A stretch of DNA of 64,000 nt from Candidatus Yanofskybacteria bacterium RIFCSPLOWO2_01_FULL_39_28 (GTDB lineage: Bacteria; Patescibacteriota; Minisyncoccia; 2-02-FULL-40-12; GWA2-44-9), in assembly GCA_001794635.1 (NCBI GenBank), contig MGKE01000007.1, forward strand, positions 8,774 to 72,773, given 5' to 3'. Of the stretch, positions 2,913 to 61,370 are shown in pieces. The notes below the pieces were generated by a model, which had not been told where the DNA came from, ran no database searches, and was given only the letters and a program-made list of their open reading frames with translations. Within the stretch, counting starts at the first letter, position 1; each line of letters begins with the position of its first letter. A program made the translations under genes and the position numbers.

Positions 2913-4619
2913 ATGAATAAGTATTCGAAAGTAACAACTTCAGGCTCAAACAACTTTGATGTTATAGTAATTAATACTATTTTTACTGTTTCCTACTTCT
3001 CATCAAAAGATGGCATAAAGACTTCCTCTAAAGACAAAGCGGATTACTTATCAAGCGTAGAGGAAGAAATAAAAAAATGCTCTGCTAAATTAAAAGATGG
3101 TGGTTTTATGTTTATATATGGCTTACCTGCCTGGCTACCCGAATATTTTAATCTCATAAGAAAAGACTTTACATTTAGATACTGGATTGCGATTGATGGT
3201 GGCCATAAAGATACATCAATAAAAAACAATATCCCCAAGAGTCACGTAGGCCTACTAATGCTATCAAAAGGAAATAAATATGGCCCATTAAATACCAAGC
3301 AGGAAAAGATTAGCTATTCGGCTTGCTTGCATTGTAGAAATAATCTTAAAGATTGGGGTGGAAAGAAACACTTGATGAACAAAAATGGAACAGCAATATC
3401 AGATGTATGGAAAGATTTTTATCATAAGAATGGCCATATTGTTGATTCTATCGGGATTAATCTCGAGTTGGTAGATTTTGATAAAACATCGATAAAAATT
3501 GACGGCAAGATAATCCCTCCTCAGATATTAGATAGGATATATAACTTAACCAATAGGATTGGCTATAGATTTGGACTCCACAATATAATCGTCCCACCTC
3601 CAAAGAGTGTTTTTAAAACACCGCCAAGTGTTGACACAAAAACCAGAGCTGCAGATTTAGACAAAGTAGTTATGGCGAATTGTATAGAAGAAATGAAAAG
3701 GCTATATAAAAGATATCCAAATGGTTGTTTTGATATTTTCTTTGCAGACCCTCCCTATAATTTAGATAAGAAATACGACAAGTATAAGGATACGAACAAT
3801 GAGACTGAATATATAAACTGGTCAAATGAATGGCTAGATTTAGGGATTAAACTCTTAAAACCGGGCGGGTCATTATTTTCCCTTAATATCCCGGAGTGGT
3901 CTCTTCATCAAGCAATTTATCTAAATGATATCGCATATTTTCAAAATTGGATTGTCTGGGATTCTATGTCAGTTCCTTTGGGCAAGATAATGCCTGCCCA
4001 TTATTCTTTATTGCACTATTCTCAAACTCCGAATGTTAAATTCTGCGGCCATAAATGGATTGATAATCCTGGTTATTGCCTAAGAGCTTCATGTATTAAA
4101 GCAAGGACGGTTTTGGGTGATGATAAGAAAGTAGTACTTGCTGATATATGGTCTGACGTTCACAGAATAAAACATAAGAAAAATAGAGATTACCATCCAT
4201 GTCAATTGCCTCATAAATTAATGGAGAGGATTATTAGCCTATTTTCAAAAGAGGGAGATTTAATATTCGACCCATTCGCCGGAGCAGGAACAACTGCTAT
4301 CGTAGCAAAGAAGCTAAATCGCCATTATTATACAACCGAAATTTCTGCGGACTATATAAATATAACAAACCGTAGATTGAAAGAAGTAGGTGAATATGGA
4401 GATATAGTTCTGCGCTCAGTTAAACACGACAACAATGGACTAACAAAAAAGAGCGTAGAATTAGTCGTACAAAAATTAGCATTAGAGCTAAGTAGGAAAC
4501 CCACCCTAGAAGAGTTGTTAAATAAAGGTAAGTTCAAGAGGACCGATTTAACAAAACTGTATGGAGATGAAAATAGGGCCTTAAAAGTAGCTAGAGTTGC
4601 TCTTACAAATAGTAATTAA
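2913..4619 (+). CDS. DNA methyltransferase, beta-class N6A/N4C family, with a degenerate N-terminal copy of its own core
   Basis: FFADPPYNL (motif IV) precedes FDPFAGAGTT (motif I). Residues ~60-190 echo ~300-420 (GGFMFIYGLPAW/GGSLFSLNIPEW, FRYWIAID/FQNWIVWD, SHVGLLML/AHYSLLHY, SDVWKDF/ADIWSDV) but lack both DPPY and FxGxG. Confidence 0.85.
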   Translation: MNKYSKVTTSGSNNFDVIVINTIFTVSYFSSKDGIKTSSKDKADYLSSVEEEIKKCSAKLKDGGFMFIYGLPAWLPEYFNLIRKDFTFRYWIAIDGGHKDTSIKNNIPKSHVGLLMLSKGNKYGPLNTKQEKISYSACLHCRNNLKDWGGKKHLMNKNGTAISDVWKDFYHKNGHIVDSIGINLELVDFDKTSIKIDGKIIPPQILDRIYNLTNRIGYRFGLHNIIVPPPKSVFKTPPSVDTKTRAADLDKVVMANCIEEMKRLYKRYPNGCFDIFFADPPYNLDKKYDKYKDTNNETEYINWSNEWLDLGIKLLKPGGSLFSLNIPEWSLHQAIYLNDIAYFQNWIVWDSMSVPLGKIMPAHYSLLHYSQTPNVKFCGHKWIDNPGYCLRASCIKARTVLGDDKKVVLADIWSDVHRIKHKKNRDYHPCQLPHKLMERIISLFSKEGDLIFDPFAGAGTTAIVAKKLNRHYYTTEISADYINITNRRLKEVGEYGDIVLRSVKHDNNGLTKKSVELVVQKLALELSRKPTLEELLNKGKFKRTDLTKLYGDENRALKVARVALTNSN

Positions 4620-9118: not shown

Positions 9119-9323
9119 AAAGCAATGCAGGGAATGTGTAAAAACACAAAGCCCGCTACTAGGAAGAGGTCTTACGACCATCTCTGCCAAAGTTTCCCCT
9201 GGCAACGCGATGAACGCCCTAATAACGGGGTCTCTATGTTCATCGCGATTACTGACCATGCCCTGCAGAATCTGCCGAGTTTAGGCCTTTATTTATTATT
9301 AAATTGTGGTTTAATTCTACTAC

Positions 9324-10683: not shown

Positions 10684-10937
10684 GGTTAAAAGAGAAGAGC
10701 CCTCGTCATTAAAAAACTTAATACAATAATAAATAATAAATTAATAATTAAATAATATTAAAAATAAAATCAGCTTTTAAAAGCTGATGATAGAGGTTTT
10801 ATTCTTTTAAACAGGAACATATAATACGCACGAACATGATTTTCCCTCATAGGTCACAATTAAAAGGCAGCCCGCAGATTTCTTATAAACGGAAGTCATG
10901 TTCGCGGGTTGCCTTTTGGTTGTAACCAAATCATTAT

Positions 10938-12518
10938 ATGAATAAAAAAAATGCAATTGGATATTGCCGTGTCAGCACCGATGAACAAGCCAAACACGGT
11001 CTTTCTTTAGATGTTCAGGAAGAATCCTGTAAAATGGCCATCCAAAGTGATGGATATGAACTACTAAAAATAATCAGGGACGAAGGTAAGAGTGGCGGAA
11101 ACCTTAATAGAGCTGGGATGAGGGAATTAATATCGCTGGTCATAAATAAAAAAATAGATGCCATTTATACTATAAGCGGTGACCGCCTAAACAGAAATAC
11201 CCTGGAATACATGCAGTTGAGAAAGTTGCTACGAGAAAATGATATTGATTTGAAATACATTAACCAAGCAAACACTGATGACTCGGCCATGGGAAGAACT
11301 ATGGACACGGTTCTAGCTTCCTTTAACGAATTCCAGAGATTGCAAACATCAGAAAAAGTTAAAAAGGTTTCAGCCGCTAGGGTTGAAGCTGGTTATTTCC
11401 CTACGGGAGCCCCTATCGGCTACAAAAACGATATTAATCCAGACCCAAATGCCGACAGACTGGCGAAAAAGGTTATAGTTCCCGATGCAATGGCTCCACT
11501 GGTAACAGAGGCCTTTAAATTCTTTGCTACGGGCAATTTTAATGGTTACGACCTTTGTAATTTACTAAACCAGAAAGGATTAAGGACAAGGTACGGTAAG
11601 CCGATGCTACCAAGCCGATTCTATGAACTATTAAAAAATAGAATATATCTTGGAGAGGTTCATCATGGCAAAAATCATAACCCTAACGGAAAGCACAAGC
11701 CCCTTATAGATAAGGCGACATTTGACAGGGTCCAGTCCATTCTAGACGGCCACAATAAGCATGCCTGCAGACGTAGGAAGTATTGTTGGCTCTTGGGCGG
11801 CTTTGTATACTGTGCCAGGCATGGAAAGCGATATACAGCCGAGTGGCATCTAAACAAAAAGTTGGCTTATTACCACTGCACCAACAGGAATGGGTGCGGA
11901 AAATACATTGAGACCAACAAATTGGAGGCCTTAATAGCCGATAAGTTTAAAGACTTAGAATTTAACCCTGAGTTTATTGATAAGATAATAGAAAAGGCAA
12001 AAACGGCTTTTTATGCAAGCAGAGATGAGTATGATGCCAAAAGACAGGCCTTGGTAAACCAGAAAACGGCTTTTGAGGCGAAATTAAAATCAGCTGAAGA
12101 TAAGTTGTTCTCGGAAATATTGTTAAGTGATGACTATAAGAGGATAAGATATGAAGTTAAAACAGAAATTGAAAGCATAGAAGAACAATTAGCGCATCTA
12201 TCTCAAAGGCAAGAGGTCAAAGTGGACATAGCAAAAGAAATTCTGTCATTTACGAAAAATATTTACCTGACTTACAAAAAAGCTCCGCCTCATATTAAAA
12301 GGCATTACTTGAGTCTGTTTTGGGACAGATTTGAGATCCAAGATGGAGTTATAATAAAATCCGTTTCCTCTATACTGTTCAACCATCTTTTAGATCTGGA
12401 ACAGATCTACCTTAAAAATCAAAACCCCCAGATTACTGGGGATTCTGACGTTCTTATAAATATAGCAACAGAGCTCCGCGGCCAGGACTCGAACCTGGAA
12501 CCATCTCCTTACACATGA
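10938..12518 (+). CDS. Large serine recombinase (integrase); its 3' end is read from the tRNA-Asn 3' exon
   Basis: AIGYCRVSTDEQ catalytic motif, recombinase domain, Cys cluster YCARHGKRY..YHCTNRNGC, coiled coil. The last ~45 nt (ELRGQDSNLEPSPYT) are the complement of the tRNA T arm and acceptor, and the stop lies 7 nt inside the intron. Confidence 0.85.
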   Translation: MNKKNAIGYCRVSTDEQAKHGLSLDVQEESCKMAIQSDGYELLKIIRDEGKSGGNLNRAGMRELISLVINKKIDAIYTISGDRLNRNTLEYMQLRKLLRENDIDLKYINQANTDDSAMGRTMDTVLASFNEFQRLQTSEKVKKVSAARVEAGYFPTGAPIGYKNDINPDPNADRLAKKVIVPDAMAPLVTEAFKFFATGNFNGYDLCNLLNQKGLRTRYGKPMLPSRFYELLKNRIYLGEVHHGKNHNPNGKHKPLIDKATFDRVQSILDGHNKHACRRRKYCWLLGGFVYCARHGKRYTAEWHLNKKLAYYHCTNRNGCGKYIETNKLEALIADKFKDLEFNPEFIDKIIEKAKTAFYASRDEYDAKRQALVNQKTAFEAKLKSAEDKLFSEILLSDDYKRIRYEVKTEIESIEEQLAHLSQRQEVKVDIAKEILSFTKNIYLTYKKAPPHIKRHYLSLFWDRFEIQDGVIIKSVSSILFNHLLDLEQIYLKNQNPQITGDSDVLINIATELRGQDSNLEPSPYT

Positions 12519-12724
12519 TCCATAACTTTCGTAATGGGGTGGACTATCTTATGTCCCCAAAGGGACCCGGGTATATAGTCTCTACACATTTATCACTTGC
12601 GTGAATTTAGCTCGGGATTGCCAGTTTAAAGGTTTCCCCGAATTAGCCCGGTTTTTCATCGCGCATTTCTGCGCGAAGCTGCCTTACTCGACAGGGAGCC
12701 GCTCTACCATTGAGCTACCGCGGA
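12474..12724 (-). tRNA. tRNA-Asn(GUU) split by a group I intron (exons 12691-12724 and 12474-12511); CCA not encoded
   Basis: The joined exons give a 72-nt cloverleaf: acceptor UCCGCGG/CCGCGGA, D arm GCUC-AAUGGUA-GAGC, anticodon loop CUGUUAA, variable UGGUU, T arm CCAGG-UUCGAGU-CCUGG, discriminator G. Close to bacterial tRNA-Asn sequences as I recall them. Confidence 0.85.
12512..12690 (-). ncRNA. Group I intron, IC3-like, 179 nt, no internal ORF
   Basis: P1 CUGU|C:GGCAG with U.G at the splice site; P2 UCGCGCA-GAAA-UGCGCGA; AAUUCGGGGAAACC..GGCAAUCCCGAGCUAAAUUC; P6 UCAC-GCAA-GUGA; GUGUAGAGACUAU; P3 CCGGG/CCCGG; P8 GUCCC-UUUG-GGGAC; P7' AUAGUC; P9 CCAUUAC-GAAA-GUUAUGG; terminal G. Confidence 0.85.
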
Positions 12725-31698: not shown

Positions 31699-31786
31699 TG
31701 GCGGAGGCGGAGCGATTCGAACGCTCGATACCTTGCGGTATACTCGCTTTCCAAGCGAGCGCACTAGACCACTATGCGACGCCTCC
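31699..31786 (-). tRNA. tRNA-Ser(GGA), CCA encoded
   Basis: Acceptor GGAGGCG/CGCCUCC, anticodon arm CUCGC-UUGGAAA-GCGAG, long variable arm UAUACCGCAAGGUAUC, T arm GAGCG-UUCGAAU-CGCUC, then GCCA. Confidence 0.9.
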
Positions 31787-31845
31787 AAATAAAATCATGA
31801 TACTATCTTTTAAAATTACCAACAATATTACCAACTATGATGTGT

Positions 31846-31875
31846 CTTATAATTGTGCATATGCACAATTATAAG
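31846..31875. repeat. 30-nt perfect palindrome, 17 nt downstream of PaaX-like gene A
   Basis: CTTATAATTGTGCAT|ATGCACAATTATAAG. Near-copy of the palindrome at 32471-32512. Confidence 0.95.
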
Positions 31876-31892
31876 CAACTTTAAATATGCTT

Positions 31893-32420
31893 TTATAGAT
31901 TGTAATATCTCTTTAATTCTTCTTCCCTAGAACCAATGGAATTTGCCACGATAACATCTACATAATCAAATAAACCAAGTTGTTTGCATAAATCTCCAAG
32001 TTCTTCCTCGCACTTATAAGGAATAGTGAAAACACTTTTTTGCAGTATTTGAAAATCAAGATTTTTTAATCTGCTTCTTAGCCAGTTTCTTTCTTTATTC
32101 AAAGAATTTGGAATATCAAAAATAATCACTCGCCACTTATTGTCCCATCTTTTGTTTTTATTTTTTAAAGCAAAGTACTTAATTCTGGAATATTTAAACC
32201 AACCTATTCCTTGTTGTGTGAACTTATAACTATCTCCTCTCAAATTGGATAAAAAACCTCTGCCCTCCAGGTTTGTTAAACCCTTGCGAAATCTTTTATA
32301 TTCTGGCCCACTTACATGCCAACCTTTATAATAAATTGGTTGCCACTGCCACGTATCGTAAACATCAATGCCAAATCCTCCAATTGACTTAATTAATTTT
32401 AATACAAAATCTCCTTTCAT
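31893..32420 (-). CDS. PaaX-like protein: winged helix + Cas2-like-fold domain (gene A)
   Basis: KWRVIIFDIPNSLNKERNWLRSRLKNLDFQILQKSVFTIPY is the beta-alpha-beta pattern of the PaaX central Cas2-like domain. The N-terminal part is wHTH-like (FRKGLTNLEGRGFL). Confidence 0.7.
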   Translation of the reverse strand: MKGDFVLKLIKSIGGFGIDVYDTWQWQPIYYKGWHVSGPEYKRFRKGLTNLEGRGFLSNLRGDSYKFTQQGIGWFKYSRIKYFALKNKNKRWDNKWRVIIFDIPNSLNKERNWLRSRLKNLDFQILQKSVFTIPYKCEEELGDLCKQLGLFDYVDVIVANSIGSREEELKRYYNL

Positions 32421-32470: not shown

Positions 32471-32512
32471 CAGTGTCTTATAATTATGCATATGCATAAT
32501 TATAAGACACTG
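32471..32512. repeat. 42-nt perfect palindrome, 50 nt upstream of PaaX-like gene A
   Basis: CAGTGTCTTATAATTATGCAT|ATGCATAATTATAAGACACTG equals its own reverse complement. Confidence 0.95.
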
Positions 32513-33184: not shown

Positions 33185-34087
33185 CTAGACTTTCATTCCT
33201 CGCAAGATTTTTATTCTTTCTTCCAGTGGAGGATGGGTCATAAATAGTTTGGCGAACCAATTAGCACCTTCTTTGCCTTTAAATGGGTTTGAAATAAAAA
33301 GATGAGCGGTGCCATTATGGGCGAATCGAGCCGGCACTTGGTCTTGGCCGATTTTTTGAAGTGCGCTAGCCAAGCCTTCGGGGTAACGAGTCAGCAAGGC
33401 ACCGGAAGCATCAGCTAAAAATTCCCTCTTCCTTGAAACGGCAAGTTGAATTATCATTGCCGCAATCGGAGCCAGAATAGCGGCGACAAGACCGATAAGC
33501 AAAACTATTCCTCCCCCGCCACGATTATCACGATCTCCGCCAAAAGAACCATGGAATGTTGCCCTTAAAATAATATCGGAGAGAATTGATATAAGTCCGG
33601 CCATCACAACTACAATTGTAGAAACTAGGATATCTCTGTTGCCGATATGGGATATCTCATGAGCCAAAACGCCTTCTAGTTCTTCATTCTGAAGTTTCTG
33701 GATTGCTCCAGTAGTGAGAGCAATGGCCGCATGTTGAGGATTCCGACCGGTAGCAAAAGCATTGATTTGAGGAGAATCAATTAAATAAATTCTGGGCAGA
33801 GGCAAGCCAGCTGTAATACACAAATTCTCAACCATCCGACAAATATATTCGTGGCCTTCCCGCTTAATCGGCCGGGCACAAGACATGGCTAAAGCTATCT
33901 TATCTGACTTCCAGTAGGCAAAAAGGTTCATGCCGATGCTTAAAAAAACGGCAATATATAAAATCTCCGGCGCCTGCCAGACATAAGAAATCCCCCAGCC
34001 AAAAATTATGATAAACAGAAAAAATCCAGTCATCAGCAACCATGTCTTTCTGATATTAGAATCCTTTTGTTGGTATAGATTTGCCAT
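33185..34087 (-). CDS. htpX: Zinc metalloprotease HtpX (M48)
   Basis: HEISHIGNRD zinc motif, four TM segments, C-terminal THPPLEERI. Confidence 0.95.
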   Translation of the reverse strand: MANLYQQKDSNIRKTWLLMTGFFLFIIIFGWGISYVWQAPEILYIAVFLSIGMNLFAYWKSDKIALAMSCARPIKREGHEYICRMVENLCITAGLPLPRIYLIDSPQINAFATGRNPQHAAIALTTGAIQKLQNEELEGVLAHEISHIGNRDILVSTIVVVMAGLISILSDIILRATFHGSFGGDRDNRGGGGIVLLIGLVAAILAPIAAMIIQLAVSRKREFLADASGALLTRYPEGLASALQKIGQDQVPARFAHNGTAHLFISNPFKGKEGANWFAKLFMTHPPLEERIKILRGMKV

Positions 34088-34095
34088 ATTGATTT

Positions 34096-34330
34096 AGTAA
34101 AATTGTTTCTCACCATTTTCTCAACCGGTGCTCCAGGATAGACAAACAATAGCTTTAAAACCTCCGGAAGCCTTCGGGAATTCCTTCATCTCTGTAAATT
34201 AGATGATTTTAATCAAATCATGATTTACAGGATTCAGTCAGTTCCCGCTTTCCTGTCGGTTTAAGGTAAAGCTTTGTTTGTAGCTATCCCTCCCGCAATG
34301 GTTTCGAAAATGATACGAAACAATTTTACT
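34096..34330. ncRNA. Unclassified 235-nt rod-like structured element (candidate ncRNA or htpX leader)
   Basis: Perfect 14-bp closing stem AGTAAAATTGTTTC/GAAACAATTTTACT. Inward are CATTTTC/GAAAATG, AACC/GGTT, GGATAG/CTATCC, ACAAACAA/TTGTTTGT and AGCTTTA/TAAAGCT, then a central open region and an apical stem CTGTAAAT..ATGATTT/AAATCAT..ATTTACAG. Confidence 0.4.
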
Positions 34331-34411
34331 CAAACTTTTTATCTGTAAAAAACATCTGACTGCTCTAAAAAAATACGGCCTGCAAAATGGGGAGGGGTTC
34401 ACAAATAATGT

Positions 34412-35347
34412 TCAATTTATAACATTCTGAGGATTGCCATTTGCTAGGGCAATCATATTCTCTACCCAAATTTCCATAAGATTATCAAGCGATTCCTGAG
34501 TATGCCATGCCATTGCCGGTAAAGCCCAAACATTTCCTTCGTAAGCTCCAATTTCCTTAGTGTTATCCCCTTCAAAAGCATACCCGGCAATTTCTTCTTT
34601 ATTTACCTTATTTAAAATATAATCTTCGTCCCACAAGACTTTAACCCTACCGATCCCAATCAAAATTGCCGTAGACTTCACGGAATCAAGTAATTTTTTG
34701 GTTATAATTTGTTTTGTCTCAGAGTTTTCAACCAAAGCCGGCATTATAACATCGGCTGTTTCAAACAATTCATCAAGCTCTACTTTTCTAAAACGATCAT
34801 CTCTGGACTTTCTTGACCAATAAACAACCTCCATTCCTATACCCTGACAAACTTCGGCCATCTTTTTACCAATTCTTCCTAATCCAATCACACCAGCTCT
34901 TTTTCCTTTCAACAGCATCGGCTTAGAATAATCCCAATCTATCTTCCAATTATTTTTAATAATTATAGGCAATCTTCTGGAAACATCAATTGCCATTGCA
35001 ACTGCATATTCGGCAACAGCGTCTGAAGAGAATCCTGGAACATTACATGCAAGCACTCCTATTTCTTTTAGAATTTGTGGCTTAATCCAATCAAATGATG
35101 TAGAAGAACTCATAACTGCTTTTACCCCAGATAGATCTTTCACGGTTTCTGCATCAAAATCCCAATCAAATACATCTGGATCAACAGCTAATATTTTATC
35201 GTCCTTGTCTTTCTTAAGTTGCTCTATATCCTGGAGCTTCCCTTGATGTCTTATAATTTCTATTGTTCCAAAAGAACCCAATTTATCTAATAAGATCTTT
35301 GATGGCAATATTGCTTTATCTTTTGGAACAATAAAATAAAACTTCAT
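34412..35347 (-). CDS. D-isomer-specific 2-hydroxyacid dehydrogenase family protein
   Basis: NAD-binding GVIGLGRIGKKMA. Catalytic-domain layout typical of the family. Confidence 0.85.
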   Translation of the reverse strand: MKFYFIVPKDKAILPSKILLDKLGSFGTIEIIRHQGKLQDIEQLKKDKDDKILAVDPDVFDWDFDAETVKDLSGVKAVMSSSTSFDWIKPQILKEIGVLACNVPGFSSDAVAEYAVAMAIDVSRRLPIIIKNNWKIDWDYSKPMLLKGKRAGVIGLGRIGKKMAEVCQGIGMEVVYWSRKSRDDRFRKVELDELFETADVIMPALVENSETKQIITKKLLDSVKSTAILIGIGRVKVLWDEDYILNKVNKEEIAGYAFEGDNTKEIGAYEGNVWALPAMAWHTQESLDNLMEIWVENMIALANGNPQNVIN

Positions 35348-35365
35348 ATTTTATTTAAAATTTTT

Positions 35366-35606
35366 AAAATCCCACAGCCCCATCTCATCTGAATCAATAC
35401 AACGAATAGATAGTCATTAAGGAGCAGAGGTTATATTTTCCTGGGAGTCCAATGGGGGTGGTCAGGCTCGGTCGGGATTTTGGCCGATCCGCATGGCCTG
35501 ACCGGGGACAACCACCATTGGTCAGAGAAAATATAACCTCTGCGACTGTAAGGACTCCATGAGGCGTAGTCCTTTGATGAAGATGAGGTGGGTCGAGAGG
35601 GATTTT
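35366..35606. ncRNA. Unclassified 241-nt rod-like structured element (candidate ncRNA or leader)
   Basis: Closing stems AAAATCCC/GGGATTTT and CATCTCATC/GATGAGGTG. A perfect 17-bp duplex pairs 35424-35440 with 35527-35543. Further in are CCAATGG/CCATTGG and GTCAGGC/GCCTGAC around a GC-rich apex. Confidence 0.4.
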
Positions 35607-35619
35607 AAAAAACTGGAAA

Positions 35620-36174
35620 TTAAAATTTTACCTGAACGGGTTCTCGGGCGGCTGATTCATTGAGTTGGAAGAATTCTTCTTTTTTGAAGCTGAACATGTT
35701 GGCGACAACATTGGTTGGGAACTGTTCAACTTGAGTATTAAGGGTCATGACATTGGTATTGTAAAATCTACGAGCGGCTTGGATCTTGTTTTCGGTGTCA
35801 GATAACTCATCTTGGAGCTTGGCGAATGACTCAACCGCTCTTAACTGAGGATAGGCCTCAGATAGGGCAAAAAGGCTCTTTAAAGCCCCGGAAAGCATGT
35901 TTTCGGCCTGTCCATGCTCTTTGACTGTTTGAGCGCTCATAGCCGCTGCCCGAGCATTAATAACTGCGTCCAAGGTCTGTTTCTCATGAGCCGCATAACC
36001 TTTTACCGTTTCAACCAGATTTGGTATTAGGTCGTAACGCCTCTTTAATTGGACATCTATATCCGACCACGATTCTTTAACCCTGTTTCGTGACCGAACC
36101 AGCATATTATATACTCCAGGAAACCAAATGATAATAATGACTATAATAACAGCTAAAATTATTGTAATATTCAT
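35620..36174 (-). CDS. lemA: LemA family protein
   Basis: N-terminal TM, YN.LV, W..IDVQLKRR.DLIPNLV, E.....AR..YN motifs. Confidence 0.9.
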   Translation of the reverse strand: MNITIILAVIIVIIIIWFPGVYNMLVRSRNRVKESWSDIDVQLKRRYDLIPNLVETVKGYAAHEKQTLDAVINARAAAMSAQTVKEHGQAENMLSGALKSLFALSEAYPQLRAVESFAKLQDELSDTENKIQAARRFYNTNVMTLNTQVEQFPTNVVANMFSFKKEEFFQLNESAAREPVQVKF

Positions 36175-57078: not shown

Positions 57079-57195
57079 TTAAGTCTGTCTTCGCCCATTC
57101 AGGGCACGGCGTAAATTTCTACTAAAATTTCGCCTTTTACTCGGTTCAGTCAACCTCCGTAAATCCCTTCATGGGCTGAAAGATAGACTTAATCA
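57076..57195 (+). other. 120-nt structured element starting at the SBP stop codon
   Basis: TGATTAAGTCTGTCTT..GCCCAT pairs with ATGGGC..AAGATAGACTTAATCA (~25 bp with one G.U and a bulge). It encloses the hairpin GGCG(U)AAAUUU-cuacua-AAAUUUCGCC. Confidence 0.4.
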
Positions 57196-57211
57196 TTGTT
57201 CTGGATTGTTG

Positions 57212-59394: not shown

Positions 59395-59496
59395 CAAAAT
59401 ATCCATACAGTACTATTGACTTTAGGACTTAAGGGAGTATAATGATAGGTAATGGTAGTATAGCTATGTAAATTACATCGCTAAAGCTGCGTGTCA

Positions 59497-59535
59497 ACAA
59501 ATGGAGCCTTTGTAAAAGGGCTCCATTTGTTTTAT
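59497..59535 (+). terminator. Intrinsic terminator after rnj
   Basis: 12-bp stem ACAAATGGAGCC/GGCTCCATTTGT followed by TTTTA. Confidence 0.75.
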
Positions 59536-59544
59536 AATCCCACT

Positions 59545-59628
59545 CGTGGATCCGGGCCTGTAGTTTATGTAGTAAAATACTGCCATCGATACGCAGCGAA
59601 ACGAGTGCAAATCTCGTCGGGTCCACGC
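59545..59628 (+). ncRNA. Candidate small RNA between two terminators
   Basis: Putative promoter TTGTAA-17 nt-TATAAT (59510-59538) embedded in the rnj terminator. The body closes with CGUGGAUCCGG/UCGGGUCCACG and contains the hairpin CGAG-UGCAAAU-CUCG. It is followed by the terminator at 59629-59655, which works on the plus strand too. Confidence 0.3.
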
Positions 59629-59655
59629 TAAAAAATCTCCGAAAGGAGATTTTTT
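59629..59655 (-). terminator. Bidirectional intrinsic terminator
   Basis: AAAAAATCTCC-GAAA-GGAGATTTTTT. Confidence 0.75.
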
Positions 59656-60610
59656 AGTTATCTATGATTTTCTGAATTTTAATATCACTAACCAGTTCAA
59701 AGTAATGGTTGCCACTAGCTACTCCGCGACTTTCAATTTCTCCTGAAATGATCATCTGATCGCCAACTATTATGTTTGGTAAGAAAGTAAAATCAAGAAT
59801 ATTACTTCTGGAAATAAGGTAGTGCTCACAAATAGAAGCCTCATTATCGCACTTTTTGAACCAGAGATAATTTTGATATGTGGGTGAAACAAGCGAAGCA
59901 TCTCCTCTATATTCAACGGTTTTATTCTCAATCTTATCAATAAACCTGAACATGGAGAGGATTTGGTTGAATTCATTAGATTTTAAAAACTCTTGTCCTG
60001 AATCAAACTTAATTACCGAATCATCCTTTAAAAAGAGCTGGTAATAAGAATAGCCCGGCAGTCCTGCAAATTCCACATAAGTACCCGAATATAAAGATTC
60101 TTGCCTAAGGATATCTTCCTGATATTTAAAATAATTTTTAATAAAGATGTTCAGATCCTGCTTGTTTGCTTTATGAATAGTAAAATCAAACACTAGCCAC
60201 ATGTCGGCTTCTCTTTTATTTATATTACCTATCCGCCACAAATCATTTCCTGCATCTGTTTTGTTTTCTTGAACTTCTAAATAATCCGGATACCTGAACT
60301 CAAACCCATACTCCTCATTGCGGTAGGTTTGCCAGTTGGCAAACGGGTCTTGAGTTTTTTGCTCGGCTCTTTTTTGCTGAAGCTCTTGGATTTGTTTCTG
60401 ACCGTCTTCGGCTATTTTCTTGGCTTCATTAAAATTACTCCAAGCCAGATATGTAGCGTAACCATAAACAACCGCACCGGTTATAACCAAAGCCCCAATC
60501 AAAGCCAAAAAGTTAGGAGTAAAGTTTGCTTTGATTAATCCTTTAAGCGATATTACCGATTGAGAAGTTTCTGATTGAATTTGAGTAAGATCGTTTGGTT
60601 CATTATCCAT
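59654..60610 (-). CDS. Membrane-anchored hypothetical protein (318 aa)
   Basis: TM FLALIGALVITGAVVYGYATYLAW followed by an extracytoplasmic domain. No recognisable motif. Confidence 0.75.
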   Translation of the reverse strand: MDNEPNDLTQIQSETSQSVISLKGLIKANFTPNFLALIGALVITGAVVYGYATYLAWSNFNEAKKIAEDGQKQIQELQQKRAEQKTQDPFANWQTYRNEEYGFEFRYPDYLEVQENKTDAGNDLWRIGNINKREADMWLVFDFTIHKANKQDLNIFIKNYFKYQEDILRQESLYSGTYVEFAGLPGYSYYQLFLKDDSVIKFDSGQEFLKSNEFNQILSMFRFIDKIENKTVEYRGDASLVSPTYQNYLWFKKCDNEASICEHYLISRSNILDFTFLPNIIVGDQMIISGEIESRGVASGNHYFELVSDIKIQKIIDN

Positions 60611-60679: not shown

Positions 60680-60715
60680 ATTAGGTAAATTCATCATATG
60701 ATGAATTTACCTAAT
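60680..60715. repeat. 36-nt perfect palindrome, 30 nt downstream of PaaX-like gene B
   Basis: ATTAGGTAAATTCATCAT|ATGATGAATTTACCTAAT. Confidence 0.95.
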
Positions 60716-60745: not shown

Positions 60746-61312
60746 TTAGACTAATATAATGCCGTTTCTTTTCTCAAAATCATAACGTAATTGTTCCTCC
60801 CCTGAAATCTCATGGCAAGTTATTTGGTGAATATATCTTTCAACTTCAAAAGCTTTGCCTACAACAGCGATTTCATTTTTACATTCAAAGGGGTAAGCCC
60901 AGACACTTCGCTGAAACATAACAAAACCAAGTTCTTTTAATTTTCCAAGTAAAGCGGCTCTTGCTTTATATTTCTTAGCTGGAATATCAAAAATAACCAA
61001 TCGCCAATTTTTATCCCACTGCTTCGGAGTTTCAACGGAAAGATTATCTAGGTTATATTTACGGGTATACTTTCGACCAGCCTTTGTCGTTGTAATAATA
61101 TACATACCATCCGAACTAGGTTCTATATTAATAAACCCTTTGCGTCTAAGGTGATATAAGCTGCTTCTAAATTGCTTCCATTTTCTTCTCTTTAGTTCTT
61201 TTTGGATCGCACCAACAGCCCTAAGGCCAAAATAAGGATTAGTGGCCGCAACTAAAACTACGCCTCCGACCACAAGTGTTGTTAATAAAATTCTTGAAAA
61301 AGGTTTATCCAT
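60746..61312 (-). CDS. PaaX-like protein: N-terminal TM + winged helix + Cas2-like-fold domain (gene B)
   Basis: NWRLVIFDIPAKKYKARAALLGKLKELGFVMFQRSVWAYPF parallels gene A. wHTH-like LYHLRRKGFI. N-terminal hydrophobic LLTTLVVGGVVLVAA. Confidence 0.7.
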   Translation of the reverse strand: MDKPFSRILLTTLVVGGVVLVAATNPYFGLRAVGAIQKELKRRKWKQFRSSLYHLRRKGFINIEPSSDGMYIITTTKAGRKYTRKYNLDNLSVETPKQWDKNWRLVIFDIPAKKYKARAALLGKLKELGFVMFQRSVWAYPFECKNEIAVVGKAFEVERYIHQITCHEISGEEQLRYDFEKRNGIILV

Positions 61313-61324
61313 AATTATTTCTTA

Positions 61325-61370
61325 TTACTATTAGGTAAATCTATCATATGATAGATTTACCTAATAGTAA
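61325..61370. repeat. 46-nt perfect palindrome, 12 nt upstream of PaaX-like gene B
   Basis: TTACTATTAGGTAAATCTATCAT|ATGATAGATTTACCTAATAGTAA. Confidence 0.95.

Follow-up and report, generated by a model that had tools for sequence, protein, structure and literature searches.

Two hairpin elements in the lemA-htpX region

The window (the whole stretch of DNA analysed, 64 kb in length) carries on its minus strand the genes lemA, a D-2-hydroxyacid dehydrogenase gene and htpX, all co-oriented and separated by short gaps. Two of these gaps hold long rod-like structures, element 1 (e1) and element 2 (e2), and the gene coordinates agree with the original prediction that both rods lie in intergenic space; minus-strand genes are found on either side of each. 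A GC-corrected sliding scan across the window places e1 and e2 among its three strongest structure outliers, at -4.8 to -5.7 standard deviations; the third, at approximately 59441-59680, consists of two terminator-like hairpins between convergent genes. The features of the region are compiled below, with related loci designated by their L numbers.

33185-34087, minus strand: htpX, with its start codon at 34087
34096-34330, minus strand (assigned functional strand): e1, a rod of 235 nt with its end 8 nt short of the htpX start codon
34157-34190, minus strand: 3' core of e1, GAUGAAGGAAUUCCCGAAGGCUUCCGGAGGUUUU, conserved in alignments and in the paralog L120
34192-34230, minus strand: variable apical hairpin (tip) of e1, approximately 39 nt, from alignments with relatives
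34234-34262, minus strand: 5' core of e1, AAACCGACAGGAAAGCGGGAACUGACUGA, nearly invariant among species in alignments and kept in L120, a paralog in a LOG-lon leader
34317-34330, minus strand: 5' strand of the closing helix of e1, perfect over 14 bp and A/U-rich, partner 34096-34109
34331-34350, minus strand: 20 nt upstream of e1, UUUUACAGAUAAAAAGUUUG, conserved with L069
34412-35347, minus strand: D-2-hydroxyacid dehydrogenase gene (Pfam)
35361-35373, plus strand: local flank of e2, pairs with 35599-35611 (UUUUUAAAAUCCC/GGGAUUUUAAAAA) and lengthens the rod
35376-35592, plus strand (favoured): core of e2, a 217-nt repeat, 99.5-100% identical to L119:330-546
35452-35492, plus strand: G+C-rich apex block of e2, identical at 41 of 41 positions in another species (L092, L091)
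35593-35611, plus strand: lemA-side flank of e2, UCGAGAGGGAUUUUAAAAA, conserved directly after the lemA stop codon in L092 and L080
35620-36174, minus strand: lemA

Element 1 folds as a single long imperfect hairpin, with a minimum free energy of -84.4 kcal/mol on the plus strand (z = -9.0) and of -99.0 kcal/mol on the minus strand (z = -10.9), and none of 200 shuffled sequences folded equally well; the predicted rod is thus real, and its perfect 14-bp closing stem is present. The e1 covariance model, R1, matches 34092-34334 on the minus strand with 274 bits. Of the 14 pairs in the closing helix, 11 are A-U, and four extra pairs lengthen this helix to approximately 4-5 nt from the AUG; the same 14 bp constitute a perfect terminal inverted repeat of e1, a feature of the MITE type. 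The 5' and 3' cores pair with each other as a CUGAAUC/GAUGAAG tandem-G·A motif, and UUUUACAGAUAAAAAGUUUG, immediately upstream, may represent a promoter or the context of the 5' end. A 22-codon open reading frame in the 3' arm (MKEFPKASGG...) was rejected after inspection by eye, its frame being kept in L069, shifted in L120 and deprived of its start codon in L086. A K-turn or box C/D motif was likewise discarded, for the CUGA and UGAUGA segments pair as a symmetric tandem G·A loop without a 3-nt bulge, and the snoRNA matches are not significant.

For the second rod, the segment 35366-35606 yields -115.4 kcal/mol on the plus strand (z = -9.8) and -104.2 kcal/mol on the minus strand (z = -8.6). 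The rod shape and the perfect 17-bp duplex (35424-35440 with 35527-35543) stood as originally described, but the extent had to be revised: the natural unit is 35376-35592, bounded by terminal inverted repeats of 12-13 bp (35378-35390 and 35581-35592, CCCCATCTCATCT/AGATGAGGTGGG), and the outer helix of 8-13 bp is formed by local flanks. The ends are sharp, in that identity between copies begins at 35376 and stops at 35592, and the flank pairing UUUUUAAAAUCCC/GGGAUUUUAAAAA is restricted to the lemA/e2/dehydrogenase arrangement. A- and T-tracts flank the element (UUUUUUAAAAUCCC...GGGAUUUUAAAAAUUUU).

The original prediction presented the rods as flanking the dehydrogenase gene. This tie is not supported, as relatives devoid of the dehydrogenase still keep e1 before htpX and an e2-type rod after lemA; the gene occupies a variable slot between lemA and htpX, in which relatives carry other genes or none, and its closest homologs are at most 72% identical. 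Four dehydrogenase loci of Patescibacteria were found in the reference-genome collection, from two Gottesmanbacteria, one Saccharibacteria and one unclassified Patescibacteria MAG, with identities of 55-60% for three of them and 47% for the Saccharibacteria protein. None of the four carries a rod, one having two tRNAs upstream instead; because these relatives are without rods, the link was dropped, and the dehydrogenase gene is placed outside the rod element family. According to the window gene list and Pfam, no transposase gene adjoins either rod and no integrase occurs in the neighbourhood. A serine recombinase 23 kb away is the sole recombinase observed.

Conservation, covariation and strand of element 1

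Homologs of e1 are located directly before htpX, in unchanged orientation, in L069 (HtpX 92% identical), L086 (85%) and L092 (87%), which makes four species in total; before LOG-lon, e1 occurs in one, as the paralog L120, which shares its genome with L069. The window species has an e1-like 5' arm next to e2 in its LOG-lon leader. With respect to L069, the arms of e1 are 93-97% identical in nucleotide sequence, compared with 82% for htpX and 79% for lemA; with respect to L086, the values are 81-84%, 76% and 73%. The closing helix covaries in L086 (AAACUUUCC/GGAAAGUUU) and in L092. Paired cells make up 95.6% of the e1 alignment, and changes on both sides affect 44 of the 82 base pairs, against 15.2 ± 2.9 in shuffles (0 of 500 reaching the observed number) and 7-13 in slid controls, for few lineages and an alignment fitted to the model. 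With 44 of 82 pairs compensatory and with location and orientation before htpX conserved in four species, e1 is, as judged by sequence comparison, conserved and under selection. These properties, together with the G·U pairs of the sense strand, fit the earlier suggestion of a novel ncRNA or a very long structured htpX leader.

The tip behaves differently from the arms and cores: its sequence differs in L005, L069 and L120, it is shortened in L008 and missing in L086, and in L092 the apex of e2 takes its place. Furthermore, the apical ≈ 39 nt are swapped among strains that are identical elsewhere. The element as a whole is absent in close relatives, such as L071 (HtpX 94% identical) and the contig of P0134 (86%), and further relatives have non-homologous rods at the same position before htpX; htpX can therefore do without e1. 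No rods are present in relatives in which lemA-gene-htpX spacing is tight. Long hairpins were also observed at unrelated intergenic sites of relatives, for example before lemA in L069.

The strand and the ends of the rods were inferred from G·U asymmetry and position. G·U pairs conserved on the sense strand of e1 turn into mismatches in the antisense rows, and for each of the nine rods immediately 5' to htpX or LOG in relatives, the gene-sense strand gives the more stable fold. On the other hand, the five rods just 3' of lemA or of a beta-CASP gene all favour the antisense strand, and the favoured strand of e2 in the window is antisense to lemA, the dehydrogenase gene and htpX, a preference that a simple leader model does not account for. 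G·U pairs are scarce, 3-4 of approximately 90, such that a DNA-level palindrome is possible for part of the signal.

The rods stop 1-12 nt ahead of the start codon, and e1 pairs positions -22 to -5 of htpX, a gene which, like the others concerned in this genome, has no Shine-Dalgarno sequence. In the window, L069, L086 and L092, positions -18 to -4 are predicted to be ≈ 75% paired, the AUG itself being mostly free. Partition functions computed from 5 to 55 °C for the same four loci gave a flat unpaired probability for -18 to -4, and the rods stayed folded up to 55 °C; the idea of an htpX thermosensor thus found no support in melting in silico, which is a prediction only. Scans for promoters and terminators around every rod performed no better than on shuffles: neither window rod was called a terminator, and no promoter was called before e1.

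Copies, junctions and kinship of element 2

A second copy of e2 resides in the leader of the LOG-lon operon (L119), 99.5-100% identical over exactly 217 nt, and metagenome contigs yielded four combinations of flanks around the repeat, X denoting the flank of the second copy that faces away from LOG:

lemA/e2/dehydrogenase: the window
X/e2/LOG: L119
dehydrogenase/e2/LOG: L003 and L008
lemA/e2/X: L125

To judge from the contigs, these four junction types suggest that the two copies of e2 recombine, probably by inversion. Some of the junction contigs could be mis-joins, because the 217-nt repeat is longer than the k-mers of the assemblers; against this, separate assemblies of several samples arrived at identical junctions, and private SNPs are present in L003. 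Contig breaks are frequent within rods.

The original prediction also considered MITE-like insertions. This is favoured weakly, and for e2 only, by the two near-identical copies and the terminal inverted repeats, but many copies, a convincing target-site duplication and a transposase were not seen, and relatives have orthologous hairpins where the lemA-side copy lies. No further copy of e1 or e2 is present in the 64-kb window or, outside the htpX and LOG regions, in ≈ 370 kb of related loci. Pattern scans for the terminal repeats gave no match to e1 in the metagenome collection and none to e2 in the reference-genome collection, results that say little on copies in the own genome, since the source contig was likewise unmatched; the viral collection gave none to the e1 core, the e2 apex or the 120-nt element patterns. 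The flanks of the two e2 copies have at most AG...(N3)AG in common, too short to judge a target-site duplication.

In the window, L092, L086 and L085, rods of the e2 type begin approximately 15 nt or less past the lemA stop codon; L080 keeps the conserved flank alone. As UCGAGAGGGAUUUUAAAAA is conserved after the lemA stop codon in L092 and L080, the e2 site is syntenic; the arms of e2 are orthologous to the post-lemA rod of L092, with synteny extending past the repeat ends. Among the post-lemA rods, 25 of 44 pairs are compensatory in three species, the three of five rods that could be aligned with MAFFT.

The two elements had been taken to share no sequence. They have the CUGAAUC/GAUGAAG motif in common, however, and the e1 covariance model matches the centre of e2, if weakly (18.7 bits, E = 2.6e-4). 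In addition, a relative carries a chimera of e1 arms and e2 apex, in that the apex sequence of e2 forms the tip of the e1-like rod before htpX in L092/L091. By these sequence criteria, e1 and e2 are distantly related rather than unrelated.

With Rfam 15, cmscan gave no relevant match, be it for the window at the gathering score, for 34000-35700 at E up to 10, where snoRNA models were the best matches (E ≥ 0.1), or for eight related rod loci, which returned tRNAs only. No family, RF00013 included, thus matches either rod. As far as sampled, the rod family is previously undescribed and confined to a small clade of groundwater Candidatus Yanofskybacteria.

Possible roles of the rods

It can be rationalized that e1 and e2 represent one fast-evolving family of long-hairpin RNAs in the untranslated regions around lemA-htpX and LOG-lon. 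That its members are modular mRNA hairpins which act in cis at genes of protein quality control is a reading to which we give even weight for and against. Element 1 would be transcribed with htpX from the minus strand, and its A/U-rich closing helix would pair the rod's 5' end with the 14-18 nt directly upstream of the htpX start codon. The initiation region would thereby be held in duplex, because the closing helix reaches it and a Shine-Dalgarno sequence is absent there, and htpX expression would presumably need the rod to be opened or cut. Candidate openers are a factor that reads the invariant purine-rich internal loops (GGGAACUGACUGA/GAUGAAGGAAUUCCCGAAGG, including the tandem G·A motif) or a double-strand RNase. 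The tip would be dispensable and exchanged among family members by recombination. Element 2 would be a related rod that relatives keep after lemA; in the window species, a second, inverted and near-identical copy is nested in the LOG-lon leader in sense orientation. Recombination between the homologous copies would produce both reciprocal combinations of flanks, most likely through inversion of a segment larger than 35 kb, for which the aquifer population would be polymorphic.

The rods may instead be selfish, MITE- or REPIN-like palindromic DNA repeats, spreading or converting between intergenic sites without regulatory function, the hairpin being a by-product of inverted-repeat architecture or an ssDNA transposition intermediate. 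Correia repeat-enclosed elements (CREE) of Neisseria and similar MITEs are intergenic inverted repeats of 100-250 bp, co-transcribed with their neighbours as long hairpins, that can change mRNA processing and expression and act as substrates for genome rearrangement; CREE number in the hundreds, duplicate a TA target and have conserved terminal repeats. Element 2 is reminiscent of CREE in its sharp ends, terminal inverted repeats, recombination between copies and more than one copy, near-identical in different contexts and orientations, and a selfish nature would also suit the presence of e1 in some close relatives and its loss from others, the nested modules (e2 core in e1-like arms in L119, e2 apex as the tip of an e1-like rod in L092), the nearly exclusive Watson-Crick pairing, the contigs that frequently break in rods and the rearrangement mediated by e2. 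Unlike CREE, the rods were found in one or two copies per species (two of e2 and one of e1, with no extra copy in the window), without a clear target-site duplication or a nearby transposase, and their interior is best conserved, not their ends. The arms and core loops of e1 exceed the adjacent coding sequence in conservation, position and orientation with respect to htpX and LOG, or lon, are fixed among species with a consistent strand bias, the lemA-side e2 is syntenic with the L092 rod past the repeat ends, and the terminal-repeat patterns (metagenome and reference-genome collections) and core patterns (viral collection) found no match, so that we consider selfish repeats unlikely. REP/BIME and REPIN of proteobacteria are palindromic extragenic units after stop codons or between cistrons, whose hairpins stabilise upstream mRNA and whose doublets form longer hairpins; REP units, however, are ≈ 35 nt long, highly repeated and mobilised by RAYT transposases. 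The rods share their palindromic nature and placement, but measure 180-280 nt, are of low copy number and of many different sequences, and no RAYT-like gene was seen nearby, in what was not a systematic search. Placement of this kind also agrees with mRNA punctuation, in which oversized terminators or intercistronic hairpins, cut by RNase III or blocking exonucleases, would determine how stable the lemA, dehydrogenase and htpX messages are relative to one another, no signal being sensed. The e2-type rods start right after lemA, A- and T-tracts lie beside e2, e1 may be intercistronic since the genes share one orientation with little space between them, no promoter was detected before e1, and the rods remain folded to 55 °C in silico. 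Punctuation is nevertheless rather improbable, for neither rod was called by the terminator scan, both are about ten times the length that a terminator needs, the antisense strand gives the better fold in the post-lemA rods, rods are missing where lemA-gene-htpX spacing is tight, and sequence-specific recognition is indicated by two invariant parts, the internal loops of e1 and the apex of e2.

The vicinity of htpX and lon, classic heat-shock genes that belong to the sigma-32 regulon in E. coli, brings RNA thermometers to mind, with e1 and its analogues before htpX or lon exposing the start region when the closing helix, 11 of 14 pairs A-U and abutting the start codon, melts on heat shock; the non-homologous rods of other species at the identical position could be read in the same way. 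ROSE and FourU thermometers and the rpoH and cspA mRNA sensors are cis-acting structures next to the start codons of stress genes, and the extended structures of rpoH and cspA are similar in size to the rods. In known thermometers, however, it is the Shine-Dalgarno sequence or the AUG that is paired, and melting occurs at physiological temperatures, in contrast to e1, which pairs -22 to -5 upstream of a gene without Shine-Dalgarno sequence, leaves the start codon outside the helix and shows no predicted melting, -18 to -4 staying ≈ 75% paired at 5-55 °C in the window, L069, L086 and L092. A thermometer would moreover need neither 235 nt nor invariant internal loops, and we regard it as highly improbable. 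Least credible of all, to the point of being hardly tenable, are independent trans-acting small RNAs, such as divergent 6S-like or protein-sequestering RNAs with incidental neighbours. Their case comprises the overall rod shape, the strong conservation of internal loops and apex, and the favoured e2 strand antisense to its window neighbours. Like 6S RNA, the rods have a closing stem, a terminal stem and a length of the same order, but the suggested resemblance was not borne out: neither RF00013 nor any other Rfam model matches at E up to 10, and the large, open-promoter-like central bubble is absent, the internal loops of minimum-free-energy and centroid structures being small (≈ 8 nt per side or fewer). 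Neither end of the rods has a terminator, more than one paralog per genome occurs at specific gene starts, and close relatives have lost the element. Integron attC sites were rejected as well; they resemble the rods as imperfect hairpins with conserved structure, variable sequence and strand-biased folding that flank a variable gene, but the ends of e1 and e2 are without R/L core sites (RYYYAAC/GTTRRRY), the two are in opposite orientation, no integrase is nearby, and the slot genes of relatives are without rods.

Returning to the modular cis-acting hairpins, their furthest extension would be that ultra-small CPR bacteria possess a lineage-specific RNA regulon for protein quality control, in which paralogous htpX and lon leader hairpins are read by a common factor via invariant loops, with tips and cores shuffled through recombination. 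The inverted e2 pair would then act as a reversible switch, an inversion of more than 35 kb exchanging the 5' flank of the lon leader (the promoter side and outer helix), such that two expression states coexist in the aquifer population. We put this forward as a speculative proposal that is probably wrong in this full form.

CPR bacteria, or Patescibacteria, have tiny genomes with few recognisable regulators, and their control of stress genes is almost wholly uncharted. A rod family at two protease loci, better conserved than the surrounding genes, would rank with the earliest candidates for a cis-regulatory RNA system particular to this radiation. Combining core loops that are conserved, arms that covary and tips that can be swapped, the rods offer a clean natural case of modular RNA evolution. 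As a caution, rods of this kind are places where assemblies of these genomes break or are mis-joined, and the e2 pair documents recombination-driven structural polymorphism inside a wild, uncultivated population.

Two folded elements and their setting

Two intergenic gaps are framed by the co-oriented minus-strand genes lemA, D-2-hydroxyacid dehydrogenase and htpX, and each is occupied by a rod-like hairpin:

35620-36174, minus strand: lemA
35366-35606: element 2, minimum free energy (MFE) -115.4 kcal/mol on the plus and -104.2 kcal/mol on the minus strand
34412-35347, minus strand: D-2-hydroxyacid dehydrogenase
34096-34330: element 1, a single rod, MFE -84.4 kcal/mol on the plus and -99.0 kcal/mol on the minus strand
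33185-34087, minus strand: htpX (M48 peptidase)

The z-scores of both elements all lie between -8.6 and -10.9, with none of 200 shuffles folding equally well, and a GC-corrected scan that slides across the entire window places the elements among its three strongest outliers, the third being two ordinary terminator-like hairpins between convergent genes. Folds, z-scores and scan thus agree with the original prediction that two rods are present. As for the suggested check against Rfam, 6S RNA included, no Rfam 15 model matches either rod, even at E up to 10; the only matches in the window, all away from the rods, are LOOT RNA (9166-9287, minus), a group I intron (12520-12704, minus) and tRNA. 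No additional copy of either element was found in the window, and promoter and terminator scans around the rods gave nothing above shuffles. Many Rifle aquifer contigs carry the dehydrogenase protein in identical form, and the comparative data consist of these near-identical contigs together with more distant relatives. Patterns matching the window found no match in the scannable collections, where the source contig itself seems masked.

The content of the slot between lemA and htpX (window 34088-35619, compared with L069, L073-L080, L085 and L098) changes from species to species. It may be empty or hold the dehydrogenase, an M24-like peptidase or a small tautomerase-like ORF, which in L069 has decayed to 44 codons, and the slot has the look of a minor hot spot for gene turnover. 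The nearest relatives of the dehydrogenase, at most 72% identical, include two from Gottesmanbacteria among the reference genomes, and none of them has rods beside it.

Other structured features were recorded in the window. A hairpin about 100 nt long (10826-10909) precedes a large serine recombinase gene (10938-12518, plus), and the group I intron match comes directly after that gene; the region 10826-12704 is perhaps an integrated element. Both PaaX_M/Cas2-like genes (31893-32420 and 60746-61312, minus) have perfect palindromes of 36-46 bp close upstream (31815-31906, 32471-32512, 60680-60715, 61325-61370). One such palindrome also occurs in a relative (L082, ~3545-3590), and they are probably operators of these regulators. 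ARAGORN places a tRNA-Ser(GGA) at 31699-31786 (minus), where the Rfam tRNA model is silent at gathering score; in relatives (L106:2190-2460, L072:4960-5230) a tRNA-like gene is split into two halves around a long hairpin and a complete second tRNA, giving a very stable nested structure overall. A multi-stem element of about 120 nt (57079-57197, plus) directly follows the SBP_bac_5 stop codon upstream of tRNA-Leu and RNase J. Without a match in Rfam, it has a homolog directly after lemA in another species (L069:3403-3527; 87% identity over 93 nt), and its outer stem and inner hairpin covary (GGUU..AACC to CCGC..GCGG).

Conservation of element 1 and its variable tip

In L069 (GCA_030697885.1; HtpX 92% identical) the dehydrogenase is missing and 598 nt separate lemA from htpX; element 1 keeps its position and orientation there, ending 8 nt before the htpX ATG. 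Element 1 also precedes htpX in L086 (HtpX 85%), in a shorter version, and in L092/L091 (HtpX 87%), in diverged form. Judging from gene order, element 1 is tied to htpX and not to the dehydrogenase. In both L069 and L086 its arms exceed the adjoining genes in conservation (93-97% versus 82% for htpX and 79% for lemA at the nucleotide level in L069; 81-84% versus 76% and 73% in L086), and two internal-loop segments, AAACCGACAGGAAAGCGGGAACUGACUGA and GAUGAAGGAAUUCCCGAAGGCUUCCGGAGGUUUU, are near-invariant. In a model-guided alignment 95.6% of cells are paired; two-sided changes occur in 44 of 82 pairs, compared with 15.2 +/- 2.9 in shuffles (0 of 500) and 7-13 in slid-partner controls. These figures draw on a small number of independent lineages, in an alignment that was itself fitted to the model. 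Where G.U pairs are kept on the htpX-sense strand, the antisense rows show mismatches, and the sense strand folds better by 15 kcal/mol. Element 1 is not universal among relatives: the closest by HtpX (L071, 94%) and another (86%) have spacers of 13 and 75 nt with no rod, and relatives in which a gene abuts htpX likewise lack one. Where the intergenic region is free in L080, L087, L094 and L098, non-homologous rods end 7-12 nt before the htpX start.

The apical hairpin, or tip (34192-34230, ~39 nt), is the variable part. Over 3.2 kb, L005 departs from the window only here, where about 17 differences swap the hairpin for another with pairing preserved. Further variants occur in L069 and L120, the tip is shortened in L008 and absent from L086, and tips are only about 55-60% alike. 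The L005 tip loop, GTGAGCTTGTCG, recurs in a paralog in the leader of the LOG-lon operon (LOG and the lon protease gene) of another species (L120), which suggests that the tip was imported by recombination from a family member.

Kinship and apparent recombination of element 2

In its arms and in the flank CGAGAGGGAUUUU, which adjoins the lemA stop codon, element 2 is homologous to the post-lemA rod of L092 and to a rod situated ahead of LOG in L121; compensatory changes are seen at 25 of 44 predicted pairs across these three sequences. By this homology, element 2 is also vertically inherited after lemA. The two rods had been taken to share no sequence, which is contradicted by several observations: a common motif, CUGAAUC/GAUGAAG, forms a 3-bp helix beside tandem G.A; the element 1 model matches the centre of element 2 (18.7 bits, E 2.6e-4); and the 41-nt G+C-rich apex of element 2 (35452-35492) is identical in L092/L091, where it replaces the tip of the element 1-like rod before htpX, so that L092 is a natural chimera of element 1 arms and element 2 apex. 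A paralog of element 1 also precedes LOG-lon in a genome that carries element 1 before htpX. On this evidence the two elements are related.

Contigs L003 and L008 track the window from the dehydrogenase into element 2 and split off at 35592 into LOG-lon. L119 shares its sample with a window-type contig and contains window 35376-35592 (99.5% identity), in a copy 100% identical to element 2 of L001, L005 and L011. This copy has gene X, which is unrelated, on one side and LOG-lon on the other; it is in sense orientation, 57 nt upstream of the LOG start, and nested in outer helices whose 5' strand resembles the element 1 5' arm. In L125, 2,012 nt that match the lemA side of the window at 100% continue via element 2 into the X flank. 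All four flank combinations thus exist around the 217-nt unit, the pattern left when two copies recombine reciprocally; if these face opposite ways along the chromosome, the exchange would invert more than 35 kb. At 35508, copies on different contigs have an A/G difference in common, consistent with gene conversion. The repeat exceeds the assemblers' k-mers, and the junctions are known from assembled contigs; against mis-assembly, several samples independently gave the same junctions, and L003 has private SNPs. Many metagenome contigs (L006, L007, L009, L010, L014, L015 and L126) start or stop inside either element; the rods are thus assembly break points, in keeping with repeat or strain heterogeneity.

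Nature and putative role of the rods

The original interpretation is partly right: structured elements unmatched in Rfam are supported, and 6S likeness, a simple thermosensor and a typical MITE are not. A 6S RNA is ruled out by the absence of a model match and of a central bubble; attC sites by the lack of core sites and of an integrase and by the opposing orientation of the rods. Typical MITEs or REPINs are disfavoured by the low copy number in the window and related loci, the conserved interior and the fixed position. The closest behaviour is that of Correia-type hairpin repeats crossed with structured leader RNA. Long hairpins are not confined to the starts of htpX and LOG, because upstream of lemA in L069 (L069:2650-2840) there is a near-perfect rod, about 185 nt long, that contains two perfect ~20-bp stems.

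Among the rods directly 5' of htpX or LOG, the gene-sense strand gives the better fold in all nine cases, which supports an RNA role in mRNA leaders. In all five directly 3' of lemA or the beta-CASP gene, which include element 2 of the window and the L085 rod, it is the antisense strand that folds better; conversion from sense-oriented paralogs might account for this, as might an antisense transcript. Genes in this region lack a Shine-Dalgarno sequence, and in the predicted fold the closing helix of element 1 and four further pairs sequester positions -22 to -5. A simple melting thermometer is unsupported, because positions -18 to -4 keep a predicted unpaired probability of ~0.25 at all temperatures from 5 to 55 C. 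The rod might instead keep the initiation region closed, or mark the mRNA for processing, with release by a factor recognising the invariant loops or by a double-strand RNase; this model is the weakest link.

Full-text literature searches found no description of elements of this kind in Patescibacteria. The rods are an undescribed family of structured elements, for which the comparative case for selection on structure is good and an association with htpX and lon loci plausible, and one member of which, element 2, is, from its contig junctions, a pair of recombining copies.
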